From Shigella phage SP18: a stretch of 64,000 nucleotides of DNA. Made by a program: the position numbers and the translations under genes. Within the stretch, counting starts at the first letter, position 1. Each line of letters opens with the position of its first letter. The notes below the pieces were generated by a model. The model made no database searches and had not been told where the DNA came from. It was given only the letters and a program-made list of their open reading frames with translations. This document shows positions 5,578 to 52,300 of this stretch, piece by piece. Where the stretch lies: sequence record GQ981382; one strand, given 5' to 3'.

Positions 5578-5895
5578 TTAATCTTCAATTAAGTCCTGGT
5601 CATACCCCAGGGATATCAGTTTTGTTTTAAAGGCAGGAATATTTGTCATTTTTTCATCATTGACAAAAATCACTGGGTAACGAATGTTAAGGGTAGGATA
5701 TCCAGCACGCTTAGCCAAAGACACGATTAATGGCCTGTCATAAGCGATTTCAGAGCCTTGTTTGTTAAGGACTGAATAGAATGTATAAGGAAGGTTTAAG
5801 GAGCCCAGAAGGCTCCTGACGTGCATACAACCTGGGCATCGACCGACTTCTTCGGGGATACCATAGATTTCAATCTTAGTCGAGTTTTGGTCCAC
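5578..5895 (-). CDS. Glutaredoxin/thioredoxin-fold protein (NrdH-like)
   Basis: 105 aa; CPGC redox motif near N-terminus; lies just upstream of nrdG/nrdD as NrdH does in T4. Confidence 0.5.
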   Translation of the reverse strand: MDQNSTKIEIYGIPEEVGRCPGCMHVRSLLGSLNLPYTFYSVLNKQGSEIAYDRPLIVSLAKRAGYPTLNIRYPVIFVNDEKMTNIPAFKTKLISLGYDQDLIED

Positions 5896-6175
5896 AGGAA
5901 ATCACTCCTTGGTAGTTCCAGGTTTTAATAACTTCTTCATCGCTGGCAGTTGCGTACGGGACATAAACCTGAATAAGGAAACCCGTGTCATCGAAAGAGA
6001 AATAAACCGTCGGTTTGATTCCATGAATCTCAGACAATGCATAGATGTCTTTAAGGTCTTCTTCCTTACCGACAAAGAATTCCGGGTCCAGGTCACAGTC
6101 GTGGAAGTACCATTCATCACCGAACTTGTCCCATGCGGTCCAATTAGTAGCTACATATTCTTCAAAACGTTTCAT
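5876..6175 (-). CDS. Hypothetical protein (99 aa)
   Basis: ORF track. Confidence 0.45.
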   Translation of the reverse strand: MKRFEEYVATNWTAWDKFGDEWYFHDCDLDPEFFVGKEEDLKDIYALSEIHGIKPTVYFSFDDTGFLIQVYVPYATASDEEVIKTWNYQGVISCGPKLD

Positions 6176-6411
6176 TCTTTCACCTTCAGCATTTTTGCAA
6201 TGGTACTATGAATAGTCTGGATTCTTTTGTTGAATTCAGAGCTTTCGAGGCCAGGATTGGTGCTTAACCAACCGATAATAACAAACAGCAAACCAAACGG
6301 GATAGCCAGAATAAGCAGACAAACGATGAACAACACAAGCGTTATGTTTGCCAGAATATCTGCTGTAGCATTACGAAATTTATTCATATTTACCCTTAAT
6401 TGATTAACCAA
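6172..6411 (-). CDS. Small membrane protein (79 aa)
   Basis: Hydrophobic stretch LVLFIVCLLILAIPFGLLFVIIGWL. Confidence 0.45.
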   Translation of the reverse strand: MVNQLRVNMNKFRNATADILANITLVLFIVCLLILAIPFGLLFVIIGWLSTNPGLESSEFNKRIQTIHSTIAKMLKVKE

Positions 6412-6501
6412 GCATTGATAAACACTAAACTATACTGCGAATAAAATTCTGGACCAAAACGAAAAATCATATCATTTATAGTATCCATAATGTAATTCAA
6501 T

Positions 6502-6972
6502 TTAATCATGTTTCCACACCCCATCGGTATTTGACCAAAGTCGCTGATTATCTGACCCTCGCCACAGTTTTTTGGTCGGAAGATTTTTCTCATACTTCCC
6601 ATCAATAATAACATCAACATATTTAAGCATTTCTAGTTGTTTAATATCTTCAAACTTATATCCCGTCCACATCCAAATGCTTTTATTGGGATAAAGATTT
6701 TTAATAGTTTGAACCACAGAGTGAATAACATCTCGGTTATCAGGATAGAGAGGGTCTCCTCCGGTTATAGTTAATCCTTCTATATAATCATTATTCAAAC
6801 ATTCAATTAATTGTTCTAGTGTTTTACCAGTAAATGGAACACCATTTCTAGCATTCCATGTTGATTTATTATAACACCCTTCGCATTTATGCAAACAACC
6901 TGTAACGAAAAGAACGACCCTACAACCAGGGCCATTCACAAAATCACAAGGATAAATTCTATCATAATTCAT
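6502..6972 (-). CDS. nrdG: Anaerobic ribonucleotide reductase activating protein NrdG (radical SAM)
   Basis: 156 aa; CxxxCxxC-type cluster CLHKCEGCYN; directly downstream of nrdD. Confidence 0.88.
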   Translation of the reverse strand: MNYDRIYPCDFVNGPGCRVVLFVTGCLHKCEGCYNKSTWNARNGVPFTGKTLEQLIECLNNDYIEGLTITGGDPLYPDNRDVIHSVVQTIKNLYPNKSIWMWTGYKFEDIKQLEMLKYVDVIIDGKYEKNLPTKKLWRGSDNQRLWSNTDGVWKHD

Positions 6973-8786: not shown

Positions 8787-9256
8787 TTTAAACTCTTTCT
8801 AAGCTGCTTCTTAAATGAAGCCATTAATTGTGTTTTGGTGTCAGATTCATTATAAGTCATACCATTCAAAAGCATTTCCCGAATCATTTCTTCTTTTCCC
8901 AGGCGACCGAACTCTTTGGCTTTGTCTGTTACAAAATTGGGGTGAATATTGTTTTCGGTATAATCAGATTTCAGATAGACAAGCAAACTCTCTAACCATT
9001 CCAGGTAGTCAACATCGCGACTTTTTAGACCCGAACGGCTGAACTTATGCTTCATTTGTCCTTCTGTTCCATTGCACAGATTGCATAGTAACCCGCGAAC
9101 CTTACCGGCTTTTGGTCCGTTCAATTCGTGGTCATGGTCAAGATGGTTGGCCTGAACATCAGAGTCCAAATCACGGTGGCAAATTGGACACTTACCAGCT
9201 TGTGCATCATAAAGTTTTTGTTTTTCTTCTTTGTATAATTTGCCAGTCAACAACAT
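8783..9256 (-). CDS. 49: Endonuclease VII (Holliday junction resolvase) gp49
   Basis: 157 aa; near-identical to recalled T4 endo VII (MLLTGKLYKEEKQK..., HLDHDHELNGPKAGKVRGLLCNLCN, C-terminal KKQLRKSLK). Confidence 0.93.
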   Translation of the reverse strand: MLLTGKLYKEEKQKLYDAQAGKCPICHRDLDSDVQANHLDHDHELNGPKAGKVRGLLCNLCNGTEGQMKHKFSRSGLKSRDVDYLEWLESLLVYLKSDYTENNIHPNFVTDKAKEFGRLGKEEMIREMLLNGMTYNESDTKTQLMASFKKQLRKSLK

Positions 9257-9386
9257 AATAAAACCCTTACCATTATTAGATAAGGGTATTTATTAATATC
9301 CTAATAGTTTAGCAGTGCAACTTAGCACTAACAACAATCCGAATAAAGCAACTCCGGCCCAAAATACCGTAATAAGAGCATCCATA

Positions 9387-9563
9387 TCAGACCCCGTAGA
9401 ACGAGCGATGCAAACGTTTAAATTGACGAATCATCTTTTTAGTAGGACGGGTATATAATCCTACACAGGTGGCCATAAACTGGTCAGTAGGGCTTCCTTT
9501 GATAAGAAGTTTCCAGACCTTGTCACCGTTTAACTTTTCGGTATAGACTAATGCAGTTTTCAT
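9387..9563 (-). CDS. Small hypothetical protein (about 58 aa)
   Basis: Hand-translated minus ORF MKTALVYTEKLNGDKVW...; TAATG overlap with upstream ORF; below track cutoff. Confidence 0.3.
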   Translation of the reverse strand: MKTALVYTEKLNGDKVWKLLIKGSPTDQFMATCVGLYTRPTKKMIRQFKRLHRSFYGV

Positions 9564-11604: not shown

Positions 11605-11869
11605 ATTTGTGTTTGCAATGTCTGCATTTATAACGAAGATTACTAGTCTGCCAATGGACTAACTGGACCTGTTCAGTTCCACATTCTGGACAGTTTGGAA
11701 CGCTCTTAGAAGCACGTTCCCGGCGGCGAACCATAGCCATTACCATATCCCAATCAGGAACCTGACTATAATCATCAGTCCAGTTTATAAGACCTTTATT
11801 AACCCCCGCTGCGGGGGTCCATTCTGGAAATGCAGTTTCTGCAATATCTTCAGCTAAACGTTGTTTCAT
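11576..11869 (-). CDS. Hypothetical zinc-ribbon protein (97 aa)
   Basis: CPEC...CRHC Cys4 motif. Confidence 0.45.
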
Positions 11870-12855
11870 TTCAGCAGCTCCAGAGCCTGTTCCAGTTTAT
11901 CCAGACGATTAGTTGATTCTTCCCAAAGTCGCTTGGCTTTGGTATAGTCTTCAGTTGCCTTTTTATTAACAGCAAGAGCTTCATTATACGCCGTTTCCAG
12001 GGCAACAATTTCAGGCGCTTTTTGTTTCACCGGCTCGTTGTTCAGATTATCAATCAGGTCTTCAAGGGTGGTTTCTTGTGGTGCATTCATAATTTCCTCA
12101 CTTTTCTTTTTATAAATTTCTGCAACAGTTGGTTGTTTTGCACATTTAACTTCGTGTAATGTCACCACAATTTTCCAACCTTTCCAACCATGAGCACTGG
12201 TGATAGGGTCTACTTTAATTTTTTCAACAGTGCGCATATAGTTAAGGGCACACTGCATCTGTGAAGTAAGCGTGCTCGCAGCATCAAGATACTTTTTGAC
12301 ATTTTCTGGAGTAGCTACTGGAGTAAAGAACTCATGCTTAACTGTAATAATTACCTGGTTTTCCCCAGACTCTTTAACCTTGACCATGTGCTCAGCCAAA
12401 TGGGAGATAGTGCGATAATCACCATCCATCAATTTTGTCGCTGATTTTATGATAGACATTTTGTTATCTCTGAATTCACGCGCCCAGCGATGGGCGAATT
12501 CAGAAACAGTATAGCCTTGTTTATCAAGGTAGTATTTTTCAACGTCACCAAACCAATGATAGCCAATTGTACCTTTGCCGCGGTTGGATTCAACACCAAA
12601 CTTATGAAGAAGGTCTTTATTAACCAGGTATGACAGGACTCGGGAACCTTTAAAAGTTTTCTTGATATCATCGTTACCTGCACGACTCGCAATAGTTGCA
12701 ATGTCTTTCTTGAAGCGACCAGATGCAACAATCGTCGAGTCAATCTGATTTAACCAGAAATTGATAATCGAAAGGATAGACAATTCACCTGTTAATGGTT
12801 TTACTTTTGCGTCGATAGTGGTGTTAAAGGCCTGGATATATTCGTTACGTGTCAT
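11866..12855 (-). CDS. Hypothetical protein (329 aa) with C-terminal coiled coil
   Basis: Long ORF; no recognisable catalytic motif; hairpin-promoter cassette upstream at 12861-12913. Confidence 0.55.
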   Translation of the reverse strand: MTRNEYIQAFNTTIDAKVKPLTGELSILSIINFWLNQIDSTIVASGRFKKDIATIASRAGNDDIKKTFKGSRVLSYLVNKDLLHKFGVESNRGKGTIGYHWFGDVEKYYLDKQGYTVSEFAHRWAREFRDNKMSIIKSATKLMDGDYRTISHLAEHMVKVKESGENQVIITVKHEFFTPVATPENVKKYLDAASTLTSQMQCALNYMRTVEKIKVDPITSAHGWKGWKIVVTLHEVKCAKQPTVAEIYKKKSEEIMNAPQETTLEDLIDNLNNEPVKQKAPEIVALETAYNEALAVNKKATEDYTKAKRLWEESTNRLDKLEQALELLK

Positions 12856-12913
12856 AGTGTTCTCCTCATAAAGTAGGAATTCATTATACTCCCTCCATCC
12901 TTGGAAGTAAACA

Positions 12914-13291
12914 TTATTTTAATGCTAAAATCGCCGCCTGCAATTTATTGCGTTGTGTTTCCATGTTCTTGATGCGATTCAGAACATCCTGGATACCCTT
13001 TTTCTCATCTTCAATCAGACCATTTAAGCGGTTGACTGATTCCTGGATAGCATCAGCATGATGTTTCTCAATAGGCTTCATTGATGGGTTAAAGATTCCA
13101 AGAGAGCTAGCCGGTTTGACTTTCCATTGGTACATATTTTTAACGTCCAGCGGTGAAATAGGCTGTGTTTTATATTGACCTGCAAATGCTGGACCATATG
13201 ATGCGGATGATGCGATAGGGGTACGTTCTGTCATTTCTGGTTCCTTTTTCTCCTGATAAGGAGCGTAAGACAAAAGATATTCTTTAGTCAA
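12914..13291 (-). CDS. Hypothetical protein (125 aa)
   Basis: ORF track. Confidence 0.45.
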   Translation of the reverse strand: MTKEYLLSYAPYQEKKEPEMTERTPIASSASYGPAFAGQYKTQPISPLDVKNMYQWKVKPASSLGIFNPSMKPIEKHHADAIQESVNRLNGLIEDEKKGIQDVLNRIKNMETQRNKLQAAILALK

Positions 13292-13305
13292 TTTAATATC
13301 AATGG

Positions 13306-13818
13306 TTATAGTTTTAAGGAATTTTCCGTTTGGTGGATATAATTTGTATCTTCTTCAAACGTGTATGCTTCAACAGCATGGCGCATATAAAACAGCGCAA
13401 TACCCATAACCTCTTTAAAGGTATCACAAAGAGCAACATCACCCTTGGTGGTTGGCTTGAACTTAATCTGCACACCATCATTCTTGATATTGATAATCAA
13501 GTTACTGGAGGTAAAATTATAGTTCTTGATGTTAACTGGAGCTTTACGAATACGAAGTCCAGCTGCCAGGATTTCCTTGATACTCTTACGAACTGTGACA
13601 CCAAACAAAAACGCAGGGCGGCGGCAGTAATCATTCAGAGAGTTAATTCTTACAATACGTTGACCATACCCCTGGGTGGCAGAACCAGATTTGATTTTGC
13701 CAAAGTTAACCAGAGAATTCATCGCAATAAGACGGGTTGCACGTCCTTCACGCTGTTCAAATCGAGAATATTCTTTACGTGTTTTAATGTTCATATCAGA
13801 GTCCAAATAATTTTTCAT
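13306..13818 (-). CDS. Hypothetical protein (170 aa)
   Basis: ORF track. Confidence 0.5.
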   Translation of the reverse strand: MKNYLDSDMNIKTRKEYSRFEQREGRATRLIAMNSLVNFGKIKSGSATQGYGQRIVRINSLNDYCRRPAFLFGVTVRKSIKEILAAGLRIRKAPVNIKNYNFTSSNLIINIKNDGVQIKFKPTTKGDVALCDTFKEVMGIALFYMRHAVEAYTFEEDTNYIHQTENSLKL

Positions 13819-14011
13819 AGAGTTTAGCGATAGGCCACAGAATTAGCATACATAACCAGGCAAAGCAAAATACTGGCCATACAAATGTAATGAATACCGC
13901 ATCATAGCTTGATTCAATTTTAACCGGGTTCCATGCGCCTGTTTTATGCGCAATCAAAGCAGTAATAAATCCTATCACAAGATAAGCAAGAATAAAACCA
14001 ATAATTTCCAT
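13796..14011 (-). CDS. Small membrane protein (71 aa, two hydrophobic helices)
   Basis: IIGFILAYLVIGFITALIA and WPVFCFAWLCMLILWPIA segments. Confidence 0.45.
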   Translation of the reverse strand: MEIIGFILAYLVIGFITALIAHKTGAWNPVKIESSYDAVFITFVWPVFCFAWLCMLILWPIAKLYEKLFGL

Positions 14012-14013
14012 AA

Positions 14014-14859
14014 TTAATCCTTAAGAAGATTTAGGATATCGATATATTTCTGACGTTCAGCCTTGGCTTTAGCATTCAGACCGGAGAGTCGGAAAATCTC
14101 ATCATCTTGTTGTTGAATTGTAACATTCAAGCAAGTAAGCAAATTGCTAAAATACTCAATCTGGACTTGATGCTTCTCATTGCTTCGCACTGGAACAGGT
14201 TCCATTTTAGGAGCTTGTTCTGAAGAGTCTTCAGCCAGGTCTTTAATTTTATAAAGTTTAATACGCTGACCTGCTCCAGTTTCGGCATCACCAAAACTAA
14301 GAACACCGTGCTGTTCTAATTCAGACAAGGCCAATCGGAGATGGAACTTCCAGTTGTCGTATTGACATCCACTGTAATGGGAAATGGTATACTCATTTTC
14401 ATTTCTGGGGTGGTTAACAATACTAAAGATAATCCAATCACCCGAACCATTGGTCTTAAAGGTCATTTGTTTATCTTGACCTTTTGCAAGGCGAGCACCA
14501 AGAGCCAGTAAACGTCGTTGGTTGGCATGAAGGTCTTTAACCACTTCATCAAACGTCATGGTGCTAATCGCACGACCATAAAGGTCGTAACCTTTGTTAT
14601 AATTTTTAAGAATAATTCTGGCATTAGCACGAGACAACATACCTGTTTTACGAAGAGTTTTCATGACTCGGTCTTCTAACGTAAACGAACCTTTAGTCTT
14701 GTCAAAGATTTTAGTGAAGTCATTTTTAACAGTACAAACATTGAACTTGTCCCACATCATATATAGAACCTTTTCAACCACATCTTTAGTGCTTGGAATA
14801 CTGTTAAATTTAACAACTTTTTTAACTTCAGAACGAATTTCATTAATTGCTTGTGACAT
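14014..14859 (-). CDS. Hypothetical protein (281 aa)
   Basis: ORF track. Confidence 0.55.
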   Translation of the reverse strand: MSQAINEIRSEVKKVVKFNSIPSTKDVVEKVLYMMWDKFNVCTVKNDFTKIFDKTKGSFTLEDRVMKTLRKTGMLSRANARIILKNYNKGYDLYGRAISTMTFDEVVKDLHANQRRLLALGARLAKGQDKQMTFKTNGSGDWIIFSIVNHPRNENEYTISHYSGCQYDNWKFHLRLALSELEQHGVLSFGDAETGAGQRIKLYKIKDLAEDSSEQAPKMEPVPVRSNEKHQVQIEYFSNLLTCLNVTIQQQDDEIFRLSGLNAKAKAERQKYIDILNLLKD

Positions 14860-14922
14860 AATAATTTCCTCAATAGATTAATCAAAGGTCAGAACCATTA
14901 TACCATCCTTGGTATAAAGCGT

Positions 14923-15447
14923 TTATGCGAGAACCGTCTTTAAACGCTCTTCAAACTTCTGAAGGAGTACCTGGCGCTCTGCTCTTTGTTTGGTATAGGT
15001 TTCAATACGCTCTGAAGTGAGATTGTATTGTTCATTAACTGATTCCCTCATGAATTCAGGAATCTCTTTACACGCCTTGATTTCATTGAACTTATCAAGC
15101 ACCGCTTGTTGTTCAGCAATCAGACCATCATAATATTGGATATCTGATTTGATGTTTTGTACATCAGATTCAGTAGGCATATTTTTCTTTGCTCTTGTCG
15201 CTTGATATTCTGCATTAGTCTCTCTTGACCAGAACAAAGAACGGTTTTTGTTGGTGTTTTTATACACATCAACAATACCAACTGAATCAACAGTCACAAT
15301 CCAGTTCCAGGCGTTTTTATAAGTCTGACCACCTGATACTGTAATCTCACCTGCACAAGCAACATCATTAAAGAACTTACTTTGTGCTTCTGATTTAAAA
15401 TTACCATTATTGTAATTAATCAGATTAAAGATTGATTTGGCTTCCAT
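14923..15447 (-). CDS. Hypothetical protein (174 aa)
   Basis: ORF track; promoter cassette directly upstream. Confidence 0.5.
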   Translation of the reverse strand: MEAKSIFNLINYNNGNFKSEAQSKFFNDVACAGEITVSGGQTYKNAWNWIVTVDSVGIVDVYKNTNKNRSLFWSRETNAEYQATRAKKNMPTESDVQNIKSDIQYYDGLIAEQQAVLDKFNEIKACKEIPEFMRESVNEQYNLTSERIETYTKQRAERQVLLQKFEERLKTVLA

Positions 15448-15515
15448 TTTATTCTCCAGTATTTGGTAACTCAGTATGGGAACATTATACGTTTATCCCC
15501 ATACTATGTACACAT
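15448..15515 (-). promoter_or_regulatory. Early-promoter/stem-loop cassette (PeSL-like)
   Basis: tttattctcc...ggtaactcagtatgggaacattatacg...ccccatactatgtacac; near-identical copy at 16021-16092. Confidence 0.5.
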
Positions 15516-15818
15516 TTAATTAAAAGTTCTTTCAGTATTTTCACCGCTGAACCAGACGCTCTTAACGGCTTGCTGTGCGCGATGGAGCTGCTCTGCCATA
15601 TAAACACCAAGGGCCTCAGCTTTACGCGTCCTGTGGGCTTCTGCGGCGACCATTTGCAGCTTATCCATCATGATAAGAGCTTTACATTTCTCCTTCAGAG
15701 CATATCGCTTCTTCTCTTCTGGAGTTTTGACCATTCCTCTTAACTTGTGCATTTTCAGCTTAAAATGGTCAGCAGATTTCAGACATGCCTCAATCATGTC
15801 AAGTTCATACTTTTTCAT
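15516..15818 (-). CDS. Hypothetical protein (100 aa)
   Basis: ORF track. Confidence 0.45.
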   Translation of the reverse strand: MKKYELDMIEACLKSADHFKLKMHKLRGMVKTPEEKKRYALKEKCKALIMMDKLQMVAAEAHRTRKAEALGVYMAEQLHRAQQAVKSVWFSGENTERTFN

Positions 15819-15824
15819 AATTCC

Positions 15825-16019
15825 TCACTTGCGACGACGTTTTGGTAATGGCATTGCTTTACCTGCAGGGGTCAAAGTCACACGCAAAGCATTACCAATA
15901 CCAAGGGATGCTTTAACCAGACCTTTGGCTTTTAACTCACCAAATGCTTGACGTTGTTCAGGGTCACGAGTGTTAACCATCAGACCTTTTTCACCAGCAG
16001 CTTTGATTAATTCTAACAT
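15825..16019 (-). CDS. Hypothetical basic protein (64 aa)
   Basis: ORF track; promoter cassette directly upstream. Confidence 0.4.
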   Translation of the reverse strand: MLELIKAAGEKGLMVNTRDPEQRQAFGELKAKGLVKASLGIGNALRVTLTPAGKAMPLPKRRRK

Positions 16020-16020
16020 T

Positions 16021-16092
16021 TTATTCTCCGTTTGTTTATTTGGTAACTCAGTATGGGAACATTATACGTCTATCCCCATACTATGTACACTA
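16021..16092 (-). promoter_or_regulatory. Early-promoter/stem-loop cassette (PeSL-like)
   Basis: Repeat of the 15448-15515 element with minus-sense TATAAT in the hairpin loop and GGAGAATAAA before the ATG. Confidence 0.5.
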
Positions 16093-16320
16093 CTTTATAT
16101 AATTTTTAATATCAATCCTGCCCTGGTAGTGCTTGGCAGTTTCCTTCATCTTTTCTATGTCGATACCAACAATCACCTCACATGATTGACTTCCATGATG
16201 GCGTTTAAAATGTTCAATCGCTTCTTCTCGCGTTTGTTTGGATACGCGAGGTCTCATATGATTCATAATGGCTCCTTAGTAAAAATTCATTATGCATCAA
16301 CAGAGACAAGTTTGTACACC

Positions 16321-40860: not shown

Positions 40861-41457
40861 ACGTTTCTCATAGATGGATGCATTGACTTAGACCTGATTT
40901 CCTGTTGCATTGCTGCATTACTATCAATCTGTGGTCTACCTTCTATTATTATACCATCAATTTCTACAGCAAAAGACTTAAAGTTGAAAGTTGCTGTTGC
41001 GTTGATAGCGGGGTCAGAATCTTCTTTATATGAATACTGAATCTCTGACAGGTCGGACGGCCATGCTCCATAGTAATGGATTGACATGACAATTTTGTCC
41101 TTGTTGTTATCTAAGATATGAAGCGTAACCGCTTCAGGACGACCCTTTGGATGCCATGCTTTTGATTCGTGTGTGATGTAGTTGTTGAGCGAGAGCATCC
41201 ATTTATAGATATCAAGCCATGCTCTTAAGTCTTTGTCGCACAGAAAGTTAACAATCAACGGGTCGAATTCTATTGTACTACCAGGAAGACTGGAGCGATT
41301 TATACCTTGTGTTCCCCCAGGGACATCCGTCACAGGAATGTGAACTCCTGGAAGGGTAACGTCTTGAACGTTGAGTTTAAAGGTCTGTGTGAGGTTTGAA
41401 TCGCTTACCTCTAATATAAAGTTAGTCGTGTTAGTTTGATTATATAAACCTGACATA
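40857..41457 (-). CDS. 3: Tail completion/sheath stabiliser gp3
   Basis: Position between genes 1 and 2; start set at the MSGLYNQTNTTNF Met (track ORF has an unlikely 59-aa extension). Confidence 0.7.
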
Positions 41458-41541
41458 GTGCACCTTGTTTGCTTTAAAACAATCAGTGTTATAATGGTTC
41501 TAGACCTTTTGTCCTTACCAATAACACTGACCGATAATAGA

Positions 41542-42375
41542 TTATGAATTTCTCCAAACTTTTTGTGCAGAGAATTTTTTGCCTTTGCTGTAAAAAGCTT
41601 GCAACGGAAGCATAACAACGTTTGCCCAGTCACTGGGCTTGATTTCAGTGATAGTACCTTTTATATTGCCAGGTATATATGCTTTAATCATCTGGTCAGC
41701 CCCTTTAAATCCCTTCACCTTTGACCAATCAATTTTCAGATGAGTCTTGTTCGTAATCGTAGGAGTATTAGCATATTGCTTAAGAAGTTCCTCAAGGAAC
41801 TCTTGACGCGCCTTCGGCGGAATATAGTGCAAGTTCAAACCATACATCAAATTGTGCTTACCTAGCCCAAGATAAATGATTAACGGATATTTGTCCCAGT
41901 ACGGAAGAGTATCCTTATGCTTTGCATCATAGATATAAGCATAAATTTTACCCGGTTGAGGTTTAGCCGTTACGTGGCCACGAACTGATTTCTTAATTGT
42001 CTCAGCGAACCATCTGGCAGATTTGGTGTTGCTTGCTGCACCTTCGTTAGCAATCTTATCTCTTATGCTCTTTCTAAAGCTATTCACCATTATCAGCTGG
42101 CGTTCAGCCTTCGTAAGTTTACCAGCAGGTTTCTTTTTGAGTTTGGATACTTTATAAGCAGTCTGAATTCTCGAATTGTATCTTGACATGCTTTTGGTAA
42201 AGGTCGAATAGTTGATTCCTTTCTCTTCAGCAAACTTCTTCGAAGTCATTCCCTTTTCTTTTGCTGTATAAAATTCAACCCCTATCTCAACCCATTGTTG
42301 TTCGGATTTACTGGGTTTTGGACCTGGTTTATCTGCAGATTCATTGATAAATGTAAAAATACTCATCCTTTCCAT
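41542..42375 (-). CDS. 2: DNA end protector protein gp2
   Basis: 277-aa basic protein; synteny 4-2-3 as in T4. Confidence 0.75.
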
Positions 42376-42812
42376 CCTAATTTTTTCAGTGAGTTTTCAG
42401 TGATTATCCTGAACGTTATACCCATCTTATCCGCGGTAGCTTGTGCAGCTTTCCATTTGTCAGAGTTAACGCTCCAGGTGTACATTTCGTTAATAAATCT
42501 CTTTTTACTCGCAGTGGTATTATTGGCCGGTTTGGTTGGGGGTCTTGTTTCTTTTAATGGCTTAACTTCGAAAAAGAACTGCTGTCCTGTATCGAACTTA
42601 ACCCAGAAATCCATATAATATCTGCGCTTTTTACCTTCAGCATTGCAGAAGTATGGAATAATCACAGTCTCAGAGCCCCATTGAACAACGTTCGGATGGT
42701 TGTCGAGCCATCTCATCAACCAAGCCTCCCAGCTTGACCGGTATTGTATTTTCTTCCAGTCGCCCTTATATTTTTCTATGTTGGTGGGCTTGAATTTCCC
42801 GGAGTATGCCAT
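42363..42812 (-). CDS. 4: Head completion protein gp4
   Basis: 149 aa; synteny; late promoter and GGAGG immediately upstream. Confidence 0.8.
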
Positions 42813-42840
42813 ATAGCCTCCTAATAAATATTGATATACT

Positions 42841-42848
42841 TATTTATA
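42841..42848 (-). promoter_or_regulatory. T4-type late promoter TATAAATA (minus sense) for gene 4
   Basis: Minus-sense TATAAATA-AGTATATCAATATTTATTA-GGAGG-CTAT-ATG. Confidence 0.6.
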
Positions 42849-42852
42849 AATG
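42845..42852 (+). promoter_or_regulatory. Late-promoter-like TATAAATG (plus sense) for gene 53
   Basis: tatttataaatGGAGGctttATG; 7 of 8 match to TATAAATA. Confidence 0.45.
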
Positions 42853-42860
42853 GAGGCTTT

Positions 42861-43463
42861 ATGCTTTTTTCATTTTTTAACCCTATTGATTATGATGCGA
42901 AAACAATCAGAAAAAACTCGGCATCATTGACGAAAGAAGATGTCTTAAGCATTCCAATGACTGACATCTTCAGAAACTACCGCGCTTATTTCGATAAGGT
43001 CGCTGCTAATTATACACCCAAAACCTATTACATTGCAGGAGCTCCGAGACCCGAAGAATTGGCATATCAGCTCTATGGTAACACACAACTCTATTGGGTT
43101 CTCCTGATGATTAATGACATCTATGACCCTTATTATGGTTGGCTTGGTTCTCAGGAATCATCCTATCAGGCATCTATTCAGAAATATTCGAATGTCGGTG
43201 GTAACCAGGTCCTTTATCATGTGAATGAAGATGGTGAGAAGTTCTGGAACCTTGTATCTTATCCTGATAATCCATACACCTGGTACGATAAAGGTGATAA
43301 GAACAAATTATACCCGCAGTATGAAGGTCCATTAGCTGCAGTGGATATCTATGAAGATGCTATCCGTAAAAATGAATACAAACGCGAAATAAAAATAATT
43401 GACCCGGAAGACATTGAGTCATTTATTTCCGCGCTTATCCGTGAAATGGAGAAGGCTTTATGA
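42861..43463 (+). CDS. 53: Baseplate wedge protein gp53
   Basis: MLFSFFNPIDYDAKTI...MTDIFRNYRAYF...GNTQLYWVLLMINDIYDPYYGW matches recalled T4 gp53; ATG at 42861 rather than the TTG at 42831. Confidence 0.88.
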   Translation: MLFSFFNPIDYDAKTIRKNSASLTKEDVLSIPMTDIFRNYRAYFDKVAANYTPKTYYIAGAPRPEELAYQLYGNTQLYWVLLMINDIYDPYYGWLGSQESSYQASIQKYSNVGGNQVLYHVNEDGEKFWNLVSYPDNPYTWYDKGDKNKLYPQYEGPLAAVDIYEDAIRKNEYKREIKIIDPEDIESFISALIREMEKAL

Positions 43464-45247
43464 TTAATATGTCAGATAATGTAAGTTGGTTCGTCGGGGT
43501 TGTCGAAGACCGAATGGACCCACTTCAGCAAGGTCGTGTGCGTGTTCGTGTATGGGGTATGCATCCATATGAGAAAGCACAAGGGCCTGTTAAAGGTATC
43601 AGAACCGAAGACCTTCCTTGGATGTCTGTATTGATGCCGACATCATCTGCATCAGTTTCTGGGATTCAAACTGCCATGACTGGTATGGTCCCAGGTACTC
43701 AAGTATATGGTCACTTTTTAGACAAGTGGAAGCTCAACGGTCTTGTTATTGGTACGTATGGTTCAGCCTCAAGACAAAAGGCAAATCCTAACGAAGGCTT
43801 CTCTGACCCTACAGGACAATACCCGCTTTATGTTGGTAATGATGCTGCAGCGCTTAACCGTGGCGGTGAAGTCGGTTATGATGCAACTTCGAACGTAATT
43901 CAGGATGCGAACCTTGACCTTGGTATTAACCCAGATGGTCTTGATTTGAGCCAGGTTAAGCCTGATGATAATCCTAATTTCACAATTGAAAATATGCTCC
44001 ACCGTGATGAAGGTCTTCGACTGAAGGTATATTGGGACACCGAAGGTTATCCTACTATAGGCATAGGACACTTAATTGCACCACAACCTATTAGAGATAT
44101 GAATCAGATAAACAAAATATTATCTAATCAAATAGGCCGTGAAGTTAAAGGTAACCCTGGTGCAATATCAATGGACGAGGCTTCTAAGTTATTCCAAGAA
44201 GACCTTAAAAAAGTCCAAAACGATATAGGTAGGCATAGTGTTGTGGGTCCGGTTTATAATAAAGAAAACCGTTCGAGACAAATGGCTCTTGAAAACATGG
44301 CTTTCCAAATGGGATTAGGTGGATTGGCTAAATTCCGTGGAATGCTTAGCGCAATGTTAGTAGGTGATTATAAAAAAGCATTTGAGGAAGCTCGTAATTC
44401 AGTATGGTTTAACCAAACTAAAGGACGTGCATCAAGGGTATCAATGATTATCCTTACCGGTAATATGGAATCATATGGTATTATGGCTCCTAAAGAAAGG
44501 TCATTTAAAGGGCGTTCATATAGGATGATTCAAACCTTTGCAGCCCCTGCAAATTCTGACCCAGCCGACCCATGGACTCCAGAAGATACACGGATTCTAT
44601 TTAAAGAGCCAGAATCAAGTTACAAGGGCGAATATCCTTACGTGCAGACAATGCAAACTGAAGGCGGTCATATTCAGGAATTCGATAACACCCCTGGACA
44701 AGAACGTTATCGACTGATTCACCCAACCGGTTCCTACGAGGAAGTTGCACCAGATGGTCGTAAGACTTCGAAGACAGTGGCCGATGGTTATTATATGACC
44801 CAGGGTGATTCGAGTACTTACGTTGGTGGTAATAATAAAGTCAACGTTGGCGGTGATGAAACCTATTATAATATGGCTAATGTTCGTCGTCAGACCGATG
44901 GAAACGAAAGCATTCATATTCGTGGGAATGAAACCAAAACTGTAGAAGGTAATGGAACTTTGCTTGTTAAAGGAAATGTTAAAATAGTTATTATGGGTAC
45001 TGCTGATATAACTGTTGAACAAGAAGCATATATTACGGTTGAAAAAGATACAACAGTTAATGTCAACCAGAATGCAGATATAAGTGTTAAACAAAAGGCC
45101 ACAATCAATGCTCAAAATATGGATGTAAATGTCGAACAAGATTTAAATTTTGCAGCGACGAACATTAATTTAAACGCATCAAATACTGTGCATATGGATG
45201 GTGGTTCATTAGCTAAAGTATCTGGTGGCAACGTACAGGTCGGTTAA
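43460..45247 (+). CDS. 5: Baseplate hub subunit and tail lysozyme gp5
   Basis: 595 aa; N-terminal VGVVEDRMDPLQQGRVRVRVWGMHPYEKAQGP, lysozyme domain DEGLRLKVYWDTEGYPTIGIGHLI, C-terminal repetitive beta-helix region. Confidence 0.93.
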   Translation: MINMSDNVSWFVGVVEDRMDPLQQGRVRVRVWGMHPYEKAQGPVKGIRTEDLPWMSVLMPTSSASVSGIQTAMTGMVPGTQVYGHFLDKWKLNGLVIGTYGSASRQKANPNEGFSDPTGQYPLYVGNDAAALNRGGEVGYDATSNVIQDANLDLGINPDGLDLSQVKPDDNPNFTIENMLHRDEGLRLKVYWDTEGYPTIGIGHLIAPQPIRDMNQINKILSNQIGREVKGNPGAISMDEASKLFQEDLKKVQNDIGRHSVVGPVYNKENRSRQMALENMAFQMGLGGLAKFRGMLSAMLVGDYKKAFEEARNSVWFNQTKGRASRVSMIILTGNMESYGIMAPKERSFKGRSYRMIQTFAAPANSDPADPWTPEDTRILFKEPESSYKGEYPYVQTMQTEGGHIQEFDNTPGQERYRLIHPTGSYEEVAPDGRKTSKTVADGYYMTQGDSSTYVGGNNKVNVGGDETYYNMANVRRQTDGNESIHIRGNETKTVEGNGTLLVKGNVKIVIMGTADITVEQEAYITVEKDTTVNVNQNADISVKQKATINAQNMDVNVEQDLNFAATNINLNASNTVHMDGGSLAKVSGGNVQVG

Positions 45248-45248
45248 T

Positions 45249-47312
45249 ATGAATTACTACGATAAAGTTGATGAAGTGGTAGGGACTGTAACAAGTCCCT
45301 GTGATGACGCAGTAGGACCCGGTGAATATCGCCGGGTTAAATGGGAATTATATAACCCAACAGGTGCTTTTATTCAACCTGGGAATGGCGTTGAATGGGA
45401 TACCGAGATTATTCCACTAGCTACACATTTATACACACAAAATCCATTTGGTAATAAGTCCGAAACTTTTCCTGCACCTCCGCCGCCGGAAGATGGAACA
45501 AGTCAAGGTATCTGGTGTGCTAAACTCGGAATATTCTTTATTACGCAATTGGATTTAGAAAATTATGTAGAATCGATTGGTGCAACTCTTTTGTCCGGTA
45601 ATGATTGGTACGGTGCTGATTTATCAAAATCCGTATTGTATAAAACATCTATTGAATATGATATGTATCGCATCGAAAACTGTGGCGGTGTATGGACGTC
45701 ACAAGGCCCTAGAATGGACCCCAGGACGATGATTGCAGTTACGGCTGATTATCATATGTATGTCAACTTTAACGGCCTTGGTGACTCCCGCAGGGCTTAT
45801 TTGAAGTACTATGAGACAAAACCTTGTACTTATGTTGGACTGGTATTAAATCTAGATGTTGATATGAGTATCCCAGGAACTCCGATTCCGGGACCGGTAT
45901 CCATTGGGTCTTTACCGCCAGAAATAACCGGGCGAGCCAGGGCAATAAGCTGTGTTCCTTTTACAGCGGAATTCCCTTACAACGGATTGACCAATGCGAT
46001 TATGGCTTCATGGAATACATCTAGGAATTCATTCAAATTATATTGGGATATGCTCCCTGGATGGCCATCATCTGGTGGAACCGATTGGGAAAAATTCTTC
46101 GATTCTGGTTATAGTAAGCTATCGGTCGCAATGGAAGAGCTAGGCAACTCAGCTGTTGCTATGTGTCAATATGTTCAGCAAATGGCTTTTCTTGCATTTA
46201 AAGATGCCATATCACAGGTCTTGAATATTGTTGGCGGTGGGTGGGACTTACTTAAAAGCTTTTTACCCTCGATTACTATTATGGGCATGACTATTGACCT
46301 GGAAGACCTCTGCACTTCAGGTGATGGTGTACAGAAATTAAAAGAAGCATGGAAAAACTTTAATTTAGAAGAAACCATCCAATCGATTTATTCTGCCATT
46401 GGGTCGGCATACGATTATTCGGTTGAACGCGTCAAGATGTATTCGCGTGACCTTATTGATGCAATTACAGACTTGTATGACTGGGCCTGGTCTCAATTGC
46501 TTATGGCTGGTGTTGCATTATCAAAACTGTGTGTAGACCTCGCTCAAATATGGAGTATGCCTCCTATAGTTCCGAACCCAGTTTGGAGCGTTATTACTGC
46601 GGTCAAGGAAATGATGAAGCAAGTTAAACCACTGGACATGATAATGAGCGGTAACTTTCCAGGATTCACAGCATCAGATGTTTATCAAATGGTTATGGAA
46701 AAGGTAGACCAGAAAATAGACGAAGCTTATGCAATGATTGAGGCTCTTAAAACCAAGGCACTCAATCTGTGGAATGAGATTAAGCTCAAAAAGCAAGAAG
46801 TACAAAAACAAGCTATTGAATTTAAACAATATCTTTCAGGAATGTACGAAAAAGTTACAGACGAGCTAACTGCTCAGAAGGAAGCCGCATTATCACAAGC
46901 TGAAGCTGCACTTGAACTTTTAAAGAATAAATATAATCAGATTAAGAACTCTATTACCGAAAGTCAAACCTCTGTTTCTGATGTATTAGATATGGCTTTA
47001 GAAGAATTCAAAAAACTTCCTATTGTGGCTCAAATGGAAGAACTTCTCGGTATGCTCGGAGCTACTGTAGATGATATCATGGTTATATACGAGAACTCAG
47101 TAACTAAAGCAAAATCTTTATATCACGAATTTACTGATGGTTCCAGGTCAATGAAAGACTTGTGCAAATCAATGTATAACCAAATATCAACATTATCCTT
47201 AAGTAAGGTGGTACAATGGATTAATAAGATGCTGGGAATATTCGGTTTAACGATTGCATTTCCATCCCTTTCCATTTGCATACCTTGTTTAGAATCTCCT
47301 ACTAGGAATTAA
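45249..47312 (+). CDS. Large hypothetical protein (687 aa) in the gene 5 to gene 6 interval; coiled-coil and C-terminal hydrophobic segment
   Basis: Single uninterrupted ORF from ATG 45249 (MNYYDKVDEV) to 1 nt before gene 6; no PAAR-like Gly-rich repeats recognised. Confidence 0.7.
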   Translation: MNYYDKVDEVVGTVTSPCDDAVGPGEYRRVKWELYNPTGAFIQPGNGVEWDTEIIPLATHLYTQNPFGNKSETFPAPPPPEDGTSQGIWCAKLGIFFITQLDLENYVESIGATLLSGNDWYGADLSKSVLYKTSIEYDMYRIENCGGVWTSQGPRMDPRTMIAVTADYHMYVNFNGLGDSRRAYLKYYETKPCTYVGLVLNLDVDMSIPGTPIPGPVSIGSLPPEITGRARAISCVPFTAEFPYNGLTNAIMASWNTSRNSFKLYWDMLPGWPSSGGTDWEKFFDSGYSKLSVAMEELGNSAVAMCQYVQQMAFLAFKDAISQVLNIVGGGWDLLKSFLPSITIMGMTIDLEDLCTSGDGVQKLKEAWKNFNLEETIQSIYSAIGSAYDYSVERVKMYSRDLIDAITDLYDWAWSQLLMAGVALSKLCVDLAQIWSMPPIVPNPVWSVITAVKEMMKQVKPLDMIMSGNFPGFTASDVYQMVMEKVDQKIDEAYAMIEALKTKALNLWNEIKLKKQEVQKQAIEFKQYLSGMYEKVTDELTAQKEAALSQAEAALELLKNKYNQIKNSITESQTSVSDVLDMALEEFKKLPIVAQMEELLGMLGATVDDIMVIYENSVTKAKSLYHEFTDGSRSMKDLCKSMYNQISTLSLSKVVQWINKMLGIFGLTIAFPSLSICIPCLESPTRN

Positions 47313-47313
47313 A

Positions 47314-49272
47314 ATGGCTACTCCTACGAATTACCAATTAACAAGAACCGTTAACGCAATCCCAAAAGTATTTGTGGGAGCTACGTTTGAAGAAATTAAA
47401 AAGAACATCATTGACTGGTTATCAAGCCAGGATGAATTTAAGGATTATGATTTCGTAGGTTCGCGAATGAATATCCTGATTGATATGCTTGCATACAATA
47501 CATTGTATATGCAACAGTTTGCTAACACGGCAGTTTACGAATCATTTATCGGAACTGCAAACCTAAGGTCTTCGGTTGTTCAAGCTGCACAGGATAATGG
47601 TTATCTTCCATCTTCGCGTTCGGCCGCAAAGACTTCGGTTATGCTGACATGTTCTCACGCTCTCCAACCATCGAATATTGAAATCCCGCGTGGGACTAAG
47701 TTCCTGGCTTATGCTCGTGATACATCAGCTGACCCTTATATGTTTGTCACAACGGATAATGTAATCGCGGTAAAAGACATTAACAACCAATATCTGCCGA
47801 TTGTATCCCTTGCACAAGGTCGTATTATTCGTACTGAACTTTTGTATGACCCGAAACAACCTATTCTTATTCGTGACCCGGATATTGACCGAAAAGAAGT
47901 TAAGCTTTTTGTGAACGGTATCGAGTGGACTGACTGGACAAACAAATCAATGGTTCATGCTGGCTCAACGTCCACCATTTTCTATATGCGTGAAACTGTT
48001 GATGGTAATACCGAATTCTTCTTCGGTGAAGGTGAATCGACCAAATCTGTTGCCGGTGGCGTATTGGAAGCCAACTATATTGGTGGATTGAAACCCGTAC
48101 AGGATTCGACAATTGTTATCGAATATCTTCGCACATCAGGGGCCGATGCAAATGGTGCAGTTGATTTCAGCTATGCAGACTCCTTGACTTATATCACTGT
48201 TGACAAGATTACAGAAAACTACAATAACGATAAAGATTACGTTGGAGCTGATGGCGGTGGTGACCCGGAAGATATTGAACGAATCCGTGAACTGGCTGTA
48301 GTTAAACGTGAAGCGCAGATGCGTGCTGTCACCGGGACCGATTATGATACATTCGTATCAGAAAGATTCGGCTCAATCGTACAAGCCGTACAGACGTTTA
48401 CAGACCCAAATAAACCTGGATATGCGTTTATATCAGTTAAACCTAAATCGGGCTTGTATCTCACCGCAGTGCAGCGTGAGGACATCAAAAACTACCTTAG
48501 TGAGTTCAACGTATCGACAATTACACCATCAGTTATTTCTCCTGATTATTTGTTCCTTAAACACAATATCAAAGTGTCTTATGCGCTGAATAAATTACAG
48601 GAATCTGAACAGTGGTTGCAAGCACAAATCATTAACCAGATTGACCGCTATTATATTGATGAAGTTGAATTGTTTAACCACAGTTTTGCTAAATCGAAAC
48701 TGCTCACTTATGTAGATAATACCGACCATAGTATTTTGGGTTCGTCTGCAACGGTGACAATGGTTCGCGAGGTCTTGAACTTCTTTAAGACTCCAGAATC
48801 CGGCATTAAATATTATAATCAATATACTAATAGGTCGGTGGAATCAAGCGAATTTGAATTCGTTCCAACAAACCAAAGCGATACCGTTACCTCATATAAC
48901 GTCCGTATTGTAGCGACTGACCGCAACTCATCTGGTGATGGTAAAATGGTCATTGGTCCGTTCCGTCCAGGTGATGTTCAGCTTAATGCGAATATTCAAC
49001 CTTACACAGGTAATGACTTTAATAAGATGGTTGCACCAGCTGACCAGACTCAATACTTTGTAATCGGTGAAATCGATTATTGGTCTGATTATATCTTCTG
49101 GGACATTGCCGCGATTGGTTTGACTTCGGACCGTTTTGAAGTGCAATCAATCGAACTGTATGCGGGTCCAGACCAGGACAACATCTACACAAAAGACGGT
49201 TCGCTTATCGTATTCGAAAATGACCTTCGTCCACAGTATACGACTATTAATTTAGAACCAATTACATTATAA
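47314..49272 (+). CDS. 6: Baseplate wedge protein gp6
   Basis: 652 aa; long collinear match to recalled T4 gp6 (NYQLTRT, GADGGGDPEDIERIREL, PGYAFI, LIVFENDLRPQY). Confidence 0.93.
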   Translation: MATPTNYQLTRTVNAIPKVFVGATFEEIKKNIIDWLSSQDEFKDYDFVGSRMNILIDMLAYNTLYMQQFANTAVYESFIGTANLRSSVVQAAQDNGYLPSSRSAAKTSVMLTCSHALQPSNIEIPRGTKFLAYARDTSADPYMFVTTDNVIAVKDINNQYLPIVSLAQGRIIRTELLYDPKQPILIRDPDIDRKEVKLFVNGIEWTDWTNKSMVHAGSTSTIFYMRETVDGNTEFFFGEGESTKSVAGGVLEANYIGGLKPVQDSTIVIEYLRTSGADANGAVDFSYADSLTYITVDKITENYNNDKDYVGADGGGDPEDIERIRELAVVKREAQMRAVTGTDYDTFVSERFGSIVQAVQTFTDPNKPGYAFISVKPKSGLYLTAVQREDIKNYLSEFNVSTITPSVISPDYLFLKHNIKVSYALNKLQESEQWLQAQIINQIDRYYIDEVELFNHSFAKSKLLTYVDNTDHSILGSSATVTMVREVLNFFKTPESGIKYYNQYTNRSVESSEFEFVPTNQSDTVTSYNVRIVATDRNSSGDGKMVIGPFRPGDVQLNANIQPYTGNDFNKMVAPADQTQYFVIGEIDYWSDYIFWDIAAIGLTSDRFEVQSIELYAGPDQDNIYTKDGSLIVFENDLRPQYTTINLEPITL

Positions 49273-49288
49273 GCCTCTTCGGAGGCTT
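49271..49288 (+). other. UUCG-tetraloop hairpin between genes 6 and 7
   Basis: aagcctc-ttcg-gaggctt; no T-run follows. Confidence 0.35.
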
Positions 49289-49300
49289 TAAGGAATCTTA

Positions 49301-52300
49301 ATGACTGTTAAAGCCCCTTCTGTTACTAGCTTGCGGATTGATAAACTATCTGCTAACCAGGTTAGTATTAAATGGGATGATGTAGGCTCCAACTTTTACT
49401 ATTTTGTGGAGATTGCCCAAATCACAGAAAATGGAGTACGCATCCCAACTAGAGATTTAATTTGGCGCGACCTTGGTTATACCGCAGACAATGAATGGTT
49501 CGAGCAGGAATATATTCGTCCGTTGACAAGTTATCAGATGCGTGTGTCTGTTGCGGCAATGGGCTTCGAACGGTCTGATTGGGAATATACCGAGGAATTT
49601 GAAACCTTTGCAACGAACGCATATACTTTTGAACATATGCGCGAATTTAGTTTGGCCAATAAATTCATTGAAGAAAAATTCACCAATAAAAATCAGAGCT
49701 ATATCAACTTTAACAATGATATTATTATGGCTTCATTGATGTCCGAAGACTTTACATGGACTTCTGCTTATTCTCATTTGTCTTCAATTTCGAACTATGT
49801 TTTGCAAGAAGACCAATATCATGAAATCCAGGGACCGATTCAAGCAGTTTGTGTTGACCAAAACCGTACGATGCTTGCTGAACTTGGTGGCGTGCTTTAT
49901 CTGTTCGAACGCTTTCAGCCGATGGTTAAAGTCTCCAATGACAAAGGTCAGAACTGGTATTATATAAGACTCTTTAATGAGCGTATCGGTAACCCTGTGT
50001 CAAGGACTGTATATTATCAGACTGATACCACAACTTACGTTCTGGGCTATGACCGCATATTCTATGGTCGCCAATCAAGCGATATAAGATGGTCTGCGGA
50101 TGATGTTCGATTCAGTTCTGAAGACATTACATTTGCTAAAGTCGGTTCAGATATTAACCTTGGATTTGATATTGAAATCTTCGGGAACTATGCAAGACTT
50201 CCGGCCTATATTTCACAAATAGCTGAAGCTATCACGGTTTCGGATGAATTCATTTATGTTGCGGCGCGCGGTCGTGTATATAAAGCAAAAACCTCTGATG
50301 CACCGATTGATACAACTCCAGGGTCTCCGACCTTCGGTGAAAAACTATTTGAAACTGGTTACAGTACAATTACGACAAACCCTAAAGCAGTTTGTTATAA
50401 AATGGATTCAGTTCAAGGTCATACGTTTGCATTAATTACGGGTGAAGTTAAAGAAGAAAGACAAGACCCAACTAAACCTGAAAACGTTGTTGACTCTCTG
50501 GATAAAGGCGTTTATAAATTAGACCCCGATACTGATACATGGACGAGAGTTTTTGGCAATACAGAAGAAGAACGTCGTCGAATCGAACATGGTTATGCGA
50601 GCATGTCAACTGATGGCATCGAAGTGTTCTTTAGCTCCAGTAACTTCAAATATTCGGTTGAGCCTGATACTGAACTACCTCTTAAATATCCTGATGAAGT
50701 TAATGAAGCAGTCAAATACGTTTACGATGAGCAATGGATACATGATAAGCATTACCTGATGATGAGCTTCAGAGCTGGCGAAGATTCTGGCTTCGAAGAG
50801 TTCAAACCAGGCCGTATGACTTACTATGCAGAGCCGTTCTTTAACTGGTCAAGACGTGACGATACTCGTTGTTGGATTACGACTTCAGACCGAGCAATGG
50901 TTGTCTATAACGATATTCTTTATCAGTACATCATCGATACATTTGGTGGAACTTCCCCGGAACGTATCGTGCATGAATATTGGAACAAAGGTCGAGTAAC
51001 GATTACTGCACCTAACATCGAATTCAACGGCTTTAAAAAATATGCGTCCGGGATTATGCTTCATAAAAATACCGGGGAATTAATTGGCTATTTTGAATTT
51101 GACTATCGCGTGCGTGATGAAGTGCGTATCATCTGGAAGCCAAAAGAAATTATGCTTATGGCTGAACTACAAAATCAGGAACATGATATTCCGTGGACTC
51201 CGGAAAATGAGAATAAGGAAAAAGACCCGGACTTGCAACCACTGTTAACGAAGATGATTCCAGATAGTTATCTTTTACAGGATAGTAAATTTGAAAAATT
51301 CTGTGAATACTATTTGCAGTTCATCAGTGATGGTTCCGGTACATATTATAACAACCTGTTGAATCTTATTCGTAATCAATATCCGCGCGAGGAAGATGCA
51401 TGGGAATATCTCTGGAGCGAAATGTACAAACGCAACATTTACCTCTCCAAGGAAAAACGTGACGAAGCTGTTCGATTCTTCCAGGCCCGACAGTCTGATT
51501 TTTGGGCAACAAAAGGTACAGAAGCGTCTTATAAATTCCTGTTCAAATTACTGTATAATGAAGATGTTGAAATTGACATCGAATCCAAGAACGGAACCGA
51601 GTATGATATCGTAGTTGAATCTGATAATATCAGTGAAGACATTGTAGGCCAAACCATTTATACCGCAACTGGGCGCAGTAATGTGACTTATATGGAGCGC
51701 GATTATAAAGATGGTAAATTAAGATGGCGTATTACTATTCATAACCTCCTGGGACGTTTTATTGTTGGACAAGAAATTAAATCAGAAAGAACCTCATTCG
51801 AGGGGATGATTGTACAAGGTGTTCGTGGTAAAGAGTTGTTGAGTAACAACATCGATTATATTAACCGTAATCGCTCTTATTACGTAATGACAATTAAGTC
51901 AAACCTTCCGACCTCCCGTTATCGTAATGACGTTTTGAGATTCGTTCACCCGGTTGGATTTGGATTCATCGGTATCACGTTGCTGACAATGTTTGTTAAC
52001 GTTGGTTTGACTCTTAAACATACCGAGACAATCATTAATAAATTAAGTAACTATAGATGGTCTTCTGGTATTCCATCAGAATGGAATGACCGAGTTGCGG
52101 TGATTGGTGTTGATGGCACTATTGAGAAAAACCCTATCACAGGTGAAGCAATATATAACATCGCTCCTAATGCTGGCCAGCCTTTCCCGTTACCAGCCGA
52201 TTATGACGCCGAGAACGATTTCTCTATGTTCTATGGATTGTTACCGTCACAACGTCGTGGAAAATATAGTCCACTGTTTGACCAGTCAGCTGTTACATTC

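Follow-up and report, generated by a model that had tools for sequence, protein, structure and literature searches.

A candidate non-PAAR spike-tip gene exchanged together with the distal end of gp5 in Shigella phage SP18 and other T4-type phages

The stretch of Shigella phage SP18 DNA analysed here (64,000 nucleotides of sequence record GQ981382, hereafter the window) carries a baseplate gene cluster in the order gp53, gp5, ORF687, gp6 and gp7, in which gp53, gp5, gp6 and gp7 were confirmed with Pfam and PHROGs; all features given below are on the plus strand. Gene 5 spans 43460-45247 and encodes a gp5 of 595 aa, and gene 6 spans 47314-49272. In the ORF listing, the longest open reading frame in the gap between them is 45225-47312 with a GTG start. 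The ATG at 45249 yields a product of 687 aa, and this start is backed by 41 homologues, all of which begin MNY or MDY. The gene, ORF687 (45249-47312), encodes a protein of 76.7 kDa with a pI of 4.7, an orthologue of RB43 orf205w (phrog_5296) and a putative non-PAAR spike tip. One nucleotide separates the gene 5 stop from the ORF687 ATG (junction 45245-45251, with TAA at 45245-45247, the 1-nt spacer and ATG at 45249), and likewise the ORF687 stop from the gene 6 ATG. An earlier note on this DNA had described a single 687-aa ORF filling the interval with 1-nt spacers, and both the ORF listing and the sequence confirm it. An SD-like AGGT is supplied by the final gp5 codons (GTA CAG GTC GGT), which suggests that ORF687 is translationally coupled to gene 5. 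The gene lies inside the late baseplate/structural gene cluster, and the junction with gene 5 is equally tight in distant members of the family from metagenomic loci L011 and L012.

In T4 the interval between genes 5 and 6 holds 5.1, segC, 5.3 and 5.4, the last encoding the PAAR protein; Taylor et al. 2016 reportedly found the C-terminal end of T4 gp5 to be most distal in the virion and gp5.4 to dock there. The earlier note was right to place several small genes including 5.4 in this interval, and wrong to map repEA and repEB to it: both lie antisense within gene 5, outside the interval, and have products of 45-50 aa. Its alternative that ORF687 corresponds to these replication-origin-associated genes is rejected on location. 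ORF687 was also rejected as a counterpart of T4 5.1, 5.3 or 5.4, with no similarity by BLAST or hhalign: T4 5.1 and 5.3 gave only noise against the window by BLAST, and hhalign of the ORF687 family gave probabilities of 0.09% against a gp5.4 alignment and 0.4% against gp5.1. A Pfam scan of ORF687 at E<=1 returned no PAAR family (PF05488). The protein does not have the small conical beta-structure fold of PAAR proteins and, containing only 3 His, lacks their His3Cys apex metal site; at the only His-rich columns of the family alignment (64% and 79% His) ORF687 has Ser and Tyr, and the conserved residues are Cys (C18, C193, C235, C677).

A PAAR gene was also sought elsewhere, with the complete genomes of CJ20 (169,884 bp, reassembled from pieces) and Bp7 as proxies for the genome parts beyond the window. 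T4 gp5.4 had no tblastn match in the window; gp5.4 of T4, UP19 and NHEP11 had none at E<=1 in Bp7 and the window, and only noise (E >= 0.5) in complete CJ20. A gp5.4 HMM run on six-frame translations of the window, Bp7 and CJ20 likewise gave only noise. As a positive control, an HMM trained solely on distant homologues from Acinetobacter, Vibrio, Campylobacter, Rhizobium and Aeromonas phages recovers T4 and UP19 gp5.4 at E ~1e-33. CJ20 gave one borderline hit to the PAAR HMM (E 0.0027 for the whole sequence, 4.1 for the best domain); it maps to the gene annotated as long-tail-fibre hinge and was dismissed as noise. The absence of a recognisable PAAR gene is thus borne out in the window, Bp7 and CJ20 by tblastn and by the controlled HMM, and neither the window nor the two proxies combine a known T4 gene in the interval with a PAAR gene elsewhere.

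ORF687 matches phrog_5296 ('unknown function' in PHROGs) over aa 1-682 with E=0, and RB43 orf205w, at the same genomic position, is 42.9% identical to it over 99% of the length. Pfam gave nothing above threshold for ORF687 and NCBIfam gave nothing, a PDB sequence search returned nothing significant, and a BFVD fold search returned only two significant matches, presumably family members. By tblastn the family was found at ~99% coverage in 214 phage records, which include Klebsiella Slopekvirus, RB43 and Lw1 (Pseudotevenvirus) and a few E. coli and Salmonella Tevenvirinae, with Cronobacter, Citrobacter, Enterobacter, Proteus, Providencia and Morganella among the further hosts. Full-length relatives formed 62 clusters among 5.8 billion proteins, nearly all of 665-700 aa. 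A profile search of 1.84 billion representative proteins gave 21 hits, namely 8 full-length relatives, 5 fragments and 8 weak coiled-coil matches. By these searches the family is narrow and without detectable outside relatives. The gene stands directly downstream of gene 5 in the window, Bp7, RB43, SG1, CJ20, GuL6 and metagenomic loci L011 and L012; in L011 it is followed by gp25 instead of gp6, which places the conserved linkage with gene 5. An N-terminally truncated homologue in phT4A, considered as a domain swap, was dismissed since its record is a 'partial genome'. Some depositors annotate homologues as 'tape measure' or 'baseplate hub structural protein'.

The AF2 model of ORF687, built on a 42-sequence alignment, is compact and confident (mean pLDDT 85.8, pTM 0.77). 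Invariant residues are most concentrated in the N-terminal alpha/beta domain (aa 1-~270, 45249-46058): aa 1-212 account for 27 of the 50 invariant columns, among them C18, C193 and the motifs NDWYGADLSK and ENxGG. This domain matched no known fold. A weaker linker at aa ~270-293 connects it to an all-helical region (aa ~294-664, 46128-47240) with predicted helices at 294-328, 398-435, 475-529, 538-575, 579-602 and 631-664. This region holds a conserved hydrophobic helix (413-435), a PPxVPNPxW turn and an SGNFPGFTA motif, together with a long helical hairpin (475-575) and the C-terminal helix 631-664. The long coiled-coil segment noticed earlier at about residues 500-600 is real and corresponds to the helices 475-529, 538-575 and 579-602. 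The C-terminus, which had been called membrane-like, does carry a hydrophobic segment, LGIFGLTIAFPSLSICIPCL (aa 662-682, 47232-47294; Kyte-Doolittle 1.87 over aa 662-681), but AF2 predicts there a beta-strand (673-682) packed on strand 234-241 rather than a free transmembrane helix. When aa 1-280 were modelled alone, pLDDT was >90 for residues 20-200 and strand 234-241 was lost, which suggests that this strand pairs with the hydrophobic C-terminal one. Each of the two strands carries a near-invariant Cys (C235 and C677). Conservation in the family alignment is strong along the whole length of the protein.

The gp5 C-terminus is divergent in phages of the ORF687 type, forming a longer beta-helix that ends GGxVxVG. 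In the window this variant distal end of gene 5 lies at 44900-45247 (gp5 aa ~481-595, ending VSGGNVQVG at the stop), as delimited by sliding identity against 212, UP19, SG1 and T4; RB43 gp5 ends ITGGTVQVG and PAAR-type gp5 ends DGSRIDIG. UP19, a Dhakavirus with 5.1 and 5.4, has a gp5 93-100% identical to that of the window over aa 1-~500 and 13-47% identical over the last ~90 aa. SG1 is a Tequatrovirus with an ORF687 homologue: its gp5 is ~100% identical to that of T4 over aa 1-~500 and 10-50% over the last ~90 aa, and against the window the pattern is reversed, with 21-90% over aa 1-~500 and 87-97% over the last ~90 aa. At the DNA level SG1 and T4 share 96.8% identity up to gp5 codon ~502 and 95.3% again from 10 nt before gene 6. 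On either side of the interval phage 212 matches the window at 96-100% identity, with gene 5 at 100% for ~1.3 kb, and carries a 5.1-like gene and a PAAR gene where the window has ORF687; similarity between the two decays over 44900-45020 and returns at 47303. The right edge of the exchanged segment lies at 47303-47389: similarity to PAAR-type relatives resumes at the gene 6 RBS (47303; gene 6 ATG at 47314), and the near-identical block shared with Bp7 runs on to about 47390. Both types also occur within Dhakavirus, with PAAR in UP19 and ORF687 in Bp7. The comparisons of UP19 with Bp7, SG1 with T4 and the window with 212 agree that 5.4 is always replaced by ORF687 and not supplemented by it. 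As read from the alignments, the exchanged units are gp5 aa ~481/520-595 plus ORF687 on the one side and the gp5 end plus 5.1 and 5.4 on the other. Krischvirus MIZ6 also has a 5.1-like gene and PAAR, which makes the PAAR cassette the widespread form.

The linkage extends across the family. A search with the window-type 89-aa gp5 end returned exactly 214 records, whose breakdown by organism and host equals that of the ORF687 records, a co-occurrence of identical totals and category breakdowns and not a record-by-record match. The most divergent members, P0062 (31% identity) and P0065, follow a gp5-like gene ending FTGGTV[SV]VG, of the same signature class as the window and RB43 ends. Together these sequence comparisons show that ORF687 and the final ~75-95 residues of gp5, which form the distal trimeric beta-helix end, are inherited and laterally exchanged as a unit.

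The copy in the window was acquired recently. The window and Bp7 (Dhakavirus) are 99-100% identical over 44990-47390 and 65-80% identical in both flanks; a cassette this similar between backbones otherwise so different points to recent transfer. The window backbone is that of a Gaprivervirus, like those of CJ20 and phage 212, and only the cassette is Bp7-like; CJ20 is 97% identical to the window over 40950-51320. A cassette of 99.1-99.3% identity was found in only eight phages (10 records), namely E33, WG01, CJ20, PSD2002, FB, LHE83, Bp7 and fDHCT2. The 5' portion of gene 5 is shared, at a DNA identity of >=80%, by 88 records, of which only these ten carry the ORF687 cassette. By these counts and identities the cassette is a minority allele that has recently been exchanged between genera. 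Annotated homing endonuclease genes are present in or beside the swapped region, segC in T4 and one in the gene 4/53 gap of MIZ6, and phage 212 has an uncharacterised inserted ORF in or beside it.

One published study bears on this family. Mattenberger, Leiman, Belin et al. (bioRxiv 2025, revised March 2026; PMC12407873) reported that RB43, RB16 and Lw1 are without gene 5.4 and that the 5.1-5.4 locus of the RB43 group is filled by orf205w, a protein of ~690 aa with residues 1-220 mixed alpha/beta and the rest helical. The same work describes the C-terminal end of gp5 as the most distal point of the T4 virion and the docking site of gp5.4 (PMC12407873). In a 17.7 A cryo-EM map the RB43 spike tip bears a mass larger than gp5.4, into which a low-confidence AlphaFold model of orf205w 'can fit'; the mass is described only as 'possibly encoded by orf205w', orf205w is proposed as a unique non-PAAR spike tip, and co-expression of orf205w with a gp5 beta-helix fragment failed (PMC12407873). 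Orthology and identical position make ORF687 a member of this recently proposed, still unproven class. The two proteins are alike in their place after gene 5, their size and their N-terminal alpha/beta plus helical architecture, and the two phages share the gp5 end signature GGxVQVG and the absence of gene 5.4. They differ in setting: orf205w belongs to a Pseudotevenvirus and the preprint covers the RB43 group only (PMC12407873), whereas the window copy sits in a Tevenvirinae (Gaprivervirus) backbone as a laterally acquired allele alternating with the PAAR cassette. Function is putative in both. The gp5 tip plus ORF687 cassette is new evidence from the present comparison, beyond the RB43 preprint.

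Our literature search found no paper mentioning the family other than PMC12407873, and no virion proteomics covering any of its members. In the MP1 virion dataset neither gp5 nor its neighbour was detected, and the Klebsiella/Slopekvirus papers searched held no virion MS. The ValerieMcCarty phages are PAAR-type Jiaodavirus.

A gene that accompanies one form of the gp5 end, alternates with the PAAR cassette and is co-transferred with that end most simply encodes a protein that binds it. This cassette linkage and the RB43 map together lead us to regard ORF687 as probably the protein that tips the central baseplate spike, an alternative to PAAR. Among the roles raised in the earlier note, a tail-tip or membrane-penetration protein replacing PAAR is therefore the best supported, by RB43 orthology, gp5-tip linkage and alternation with 5.1 and 5.4. 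ORF687 would sit on the flat terminus of the gp5 beta-helix that matches it, docking most likely via the highly conserved N-terminal alpha/beta domain and possibly also via the C-terminal hydrophobic strand, and would lead the virion into the outer membrane when the sheath contracts. That the AF2 monomer is compact and confident suggests a single copy per spike, as with PAAR. Once the spike has entered the periplasm, the ~400-residue helical part might, speculatively, act on the envelope, for example on the inner membrane. Nearly identical phages carry one cassette or the other, so the type of tip is probably adaptive and related to the host envelope. A counter-point is that a protein of 77 kDa would make an oddly shaped cap for piercing a membrane.

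A bolder version of the spike-tip reading, which we consider unlikely though worth stating, divides the protein in two. The N-terminal ~270 aa would be a new capping adaptor, with a fold not in the PDB, and the helical ~400 aa a deployable membrane-active cargo that the contracting tail delivers into the periplasm, where it would open or organise an inner-membrane conduit for DNA. This speculation draws on architecture only and centres on the conserved hydrophobic helix-turn at aa 413-446 and the hydrophobic C-terminus. In concept it resembles the 'specialised' PAAR proteins of the T6SS, in which a capping module likewise carries a large extra domain through the envelope on the tip. Unlike in those, the capping module of ORF687 is non-PAAR, and nothing recognisable as a toxin or an enzyme lies in the helical extension. 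If true, it would be a phage counterpart of T6SS tip-borne effectors, a plug-in 'warhead' swapped with the matching needle end. With T4 gp5.4 (the PAAR-repeat spike tip, PDB 4KU0) ORF687 shares its genomic slot. Spikes of the P2 gpV type represent another solution for capping and sharpening without a separate PAAR protein, a fused iron-binding apex; there the apex lies within the spike polypeptide and carries HxH motifs, whereas the window gp5 is without such a motif and has a separate 77-kDa partner.

A strict linkage to the gp5 C-terminus would be equally expected of a cognate folding factor, and ORF687 could instead be a non-structural chaperone or assembly factor dedicated to the variant gp5 beta-helix end, which is 15 residues longer. 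In that case the longer helix itself, or some other protein, would account for the additional density at the RB43 tip. That no virion proteomics supporting incorporation turned up in the literature searched, and that orf205w co-expression with a gp5 fragment failed (PMC12407873), both fit such a role. It would, however, leave the phage without any tip protein, as PAAR was not found in the window, Bp7 or CJ20, and the RB43 map has tip mass exceeding gp5.4 (PMC12407873). A protein of 687 aa, conserved throughout, is also large for a segment of ~90 residues, and we hold a chaperone role to be quite improbable.

Still less probable, in our estimate, is that ORF687 travels inside the virion, in the lumen of the hub or tube, and is ejected into the periplasm or inner membrane as a tape-measure-like or pore-forming protein. 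Its long helical architecture with hydrophobic segments would suit this role, certain depositors' annotation of homologues as tape measure agrees with it, and there are weak matches to tape-measure PHROGs (phrog_305, E 1.5e-4; phrog_8462, E 5e-3). These matches are confined to coiled-coil sequence, however, and the co-variation with the distal gp5 end points away from the tube lumen. Like ORF687, the gp29-type tape measures of T4 are long, helical and rich in coiled coil, but there is no significant homology and ORF687 differs in its genomic context and gp5-tip linkage. Both proxies have a bona fide gp29 (EpBp7_0211 in Bp7, CJ20_134 in CJ20), and identity with a gp29-type tape measure was rejected. 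That ORF687 is a hitch-hiking accessory gene (moron), serving for example superinfection exclusion or host takeover, can be nearly dismissed: segC, the MIZ6 homing endonuclease gene and the inserted ORF of phage 212 do mark an insertion hot spot in a recombination-prone slot, but such a gene would hardly match the gp5 tip in record number and breakdown, keep its place behind the same gp5 end signature in the most divergent members, sit in a late structural cluster with a 1-nt stop/start junction, and always substitute for 5.4 and never add to it.

The passage of contractile-tail phages through the outer membrane, and the subsequent entry of their genome across the inner one, are poorly understood. 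If ORF687 is the spike tip, T4-type phages have two unrelated ways of tipping the spike. The ORF687 gene is exchanged in cartridge fashion with the needle end that fits it, in at least three genera of Tevenvirinae and several further genera of Straboviridae. Judging by the cassette boundaries, biochemical reconstitution of a complex will probably need the matching ~90-residue gp5 C-terminus. Among the carriers are many phages considered for therapy against Klebsiella, Enterobacter, Cronobacter and avian or porcine E. coli, and their records at present label the gene 'hypothetical' or, mistakenly, 'tape measure'. Near-isogenic pairs (the window or CJ20 versus 212, and SG1 versus T4) differ essentially only in the tip cassette, so that the contribution of the tip to host range and penetration becomes testable.

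The start of the 687-aa ORF lying between genes 5 and 6 (45249-47312, plus strand; ORF687) was placed from the family alignment, which favours the ATG at 45249 (687 aa) over the GTG at 45225. In the annotation of phage CJ20 (locus L019, 4276-6363) the gene begins at the upstream GTG, giving a product of 695 aa and an overlap with the end of gene 5. The listed start of gp53, a TTG at 42831, is probably placed too far upstream, since the Pfam gp53 match begins only at residue 11 (ATG at approximately 42861). A minus-strand match to the T4 late-promoter consensus, TATAAATA, is found at 42841-42848, within the gap separating the divergent genes 4 and 53. No exact copy was found on the plus strand between 42.8 and 47.4 kb of the window, and on this basis ORF687 seems to lack a dedicated late promoter.

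In a locus from JGI metagenome 3300076144 (L012), the gene for a short gp5-like protein (389 aa; 219-1388) is directly followed by that for P0065, a divergent ORF687 family member of 743 aa. The OB domain is the sole domain marked by Pfam in this gp5-like protein, from which the lysozyme domain is apparently missing, and it ends in ...FTGGTVVVG*, which belongs to the signature class shared by ORF687-linked gp5 proteins. The phT4A homologue (L007, NC_055712.1, 3846-5473) lacks the N-terminal ~192 residues, probably because of an assembly gap and not a natural truncation, as the record is a 'partial genome'.

Identity between the window (1-64000) and CJ20 ranges from ~90% to 98% depending on the block, for instance 89.6% at 11841-16102 and 97.7% at 1942-9563; judged from this block-wise spread, the backbone is itself mosaic. 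The gap between genes 4 and 53 contains a ~738-bp insertion in phage 212 (L018, 4647-5384), with a 236-aa hypothetical ORF on the minus strand, which is absent from the window (42812-42844). The same gap in Krischvirus MIZ6 (L025, 2184-2879) holds an annotated homing endonuclease, and segC lies within the T4 5.1-5.4 cassette. Given these elements in or near the swapped region, mobile endonuclease genes may flank and promote cassette exchange.

A gp5.1-like gene (~165-190 aa) stands beside 5.4 in all five PAAR-type cassettes examined (T4, UP19, NHEP11, phage 212 and MIZ6; loci L003, L008, L009, L018 and L025), and both genes are lost together in the ORF687 cassette. Because the two are kept and lost together, gp5.1 too may have a functional link with the spike tip.
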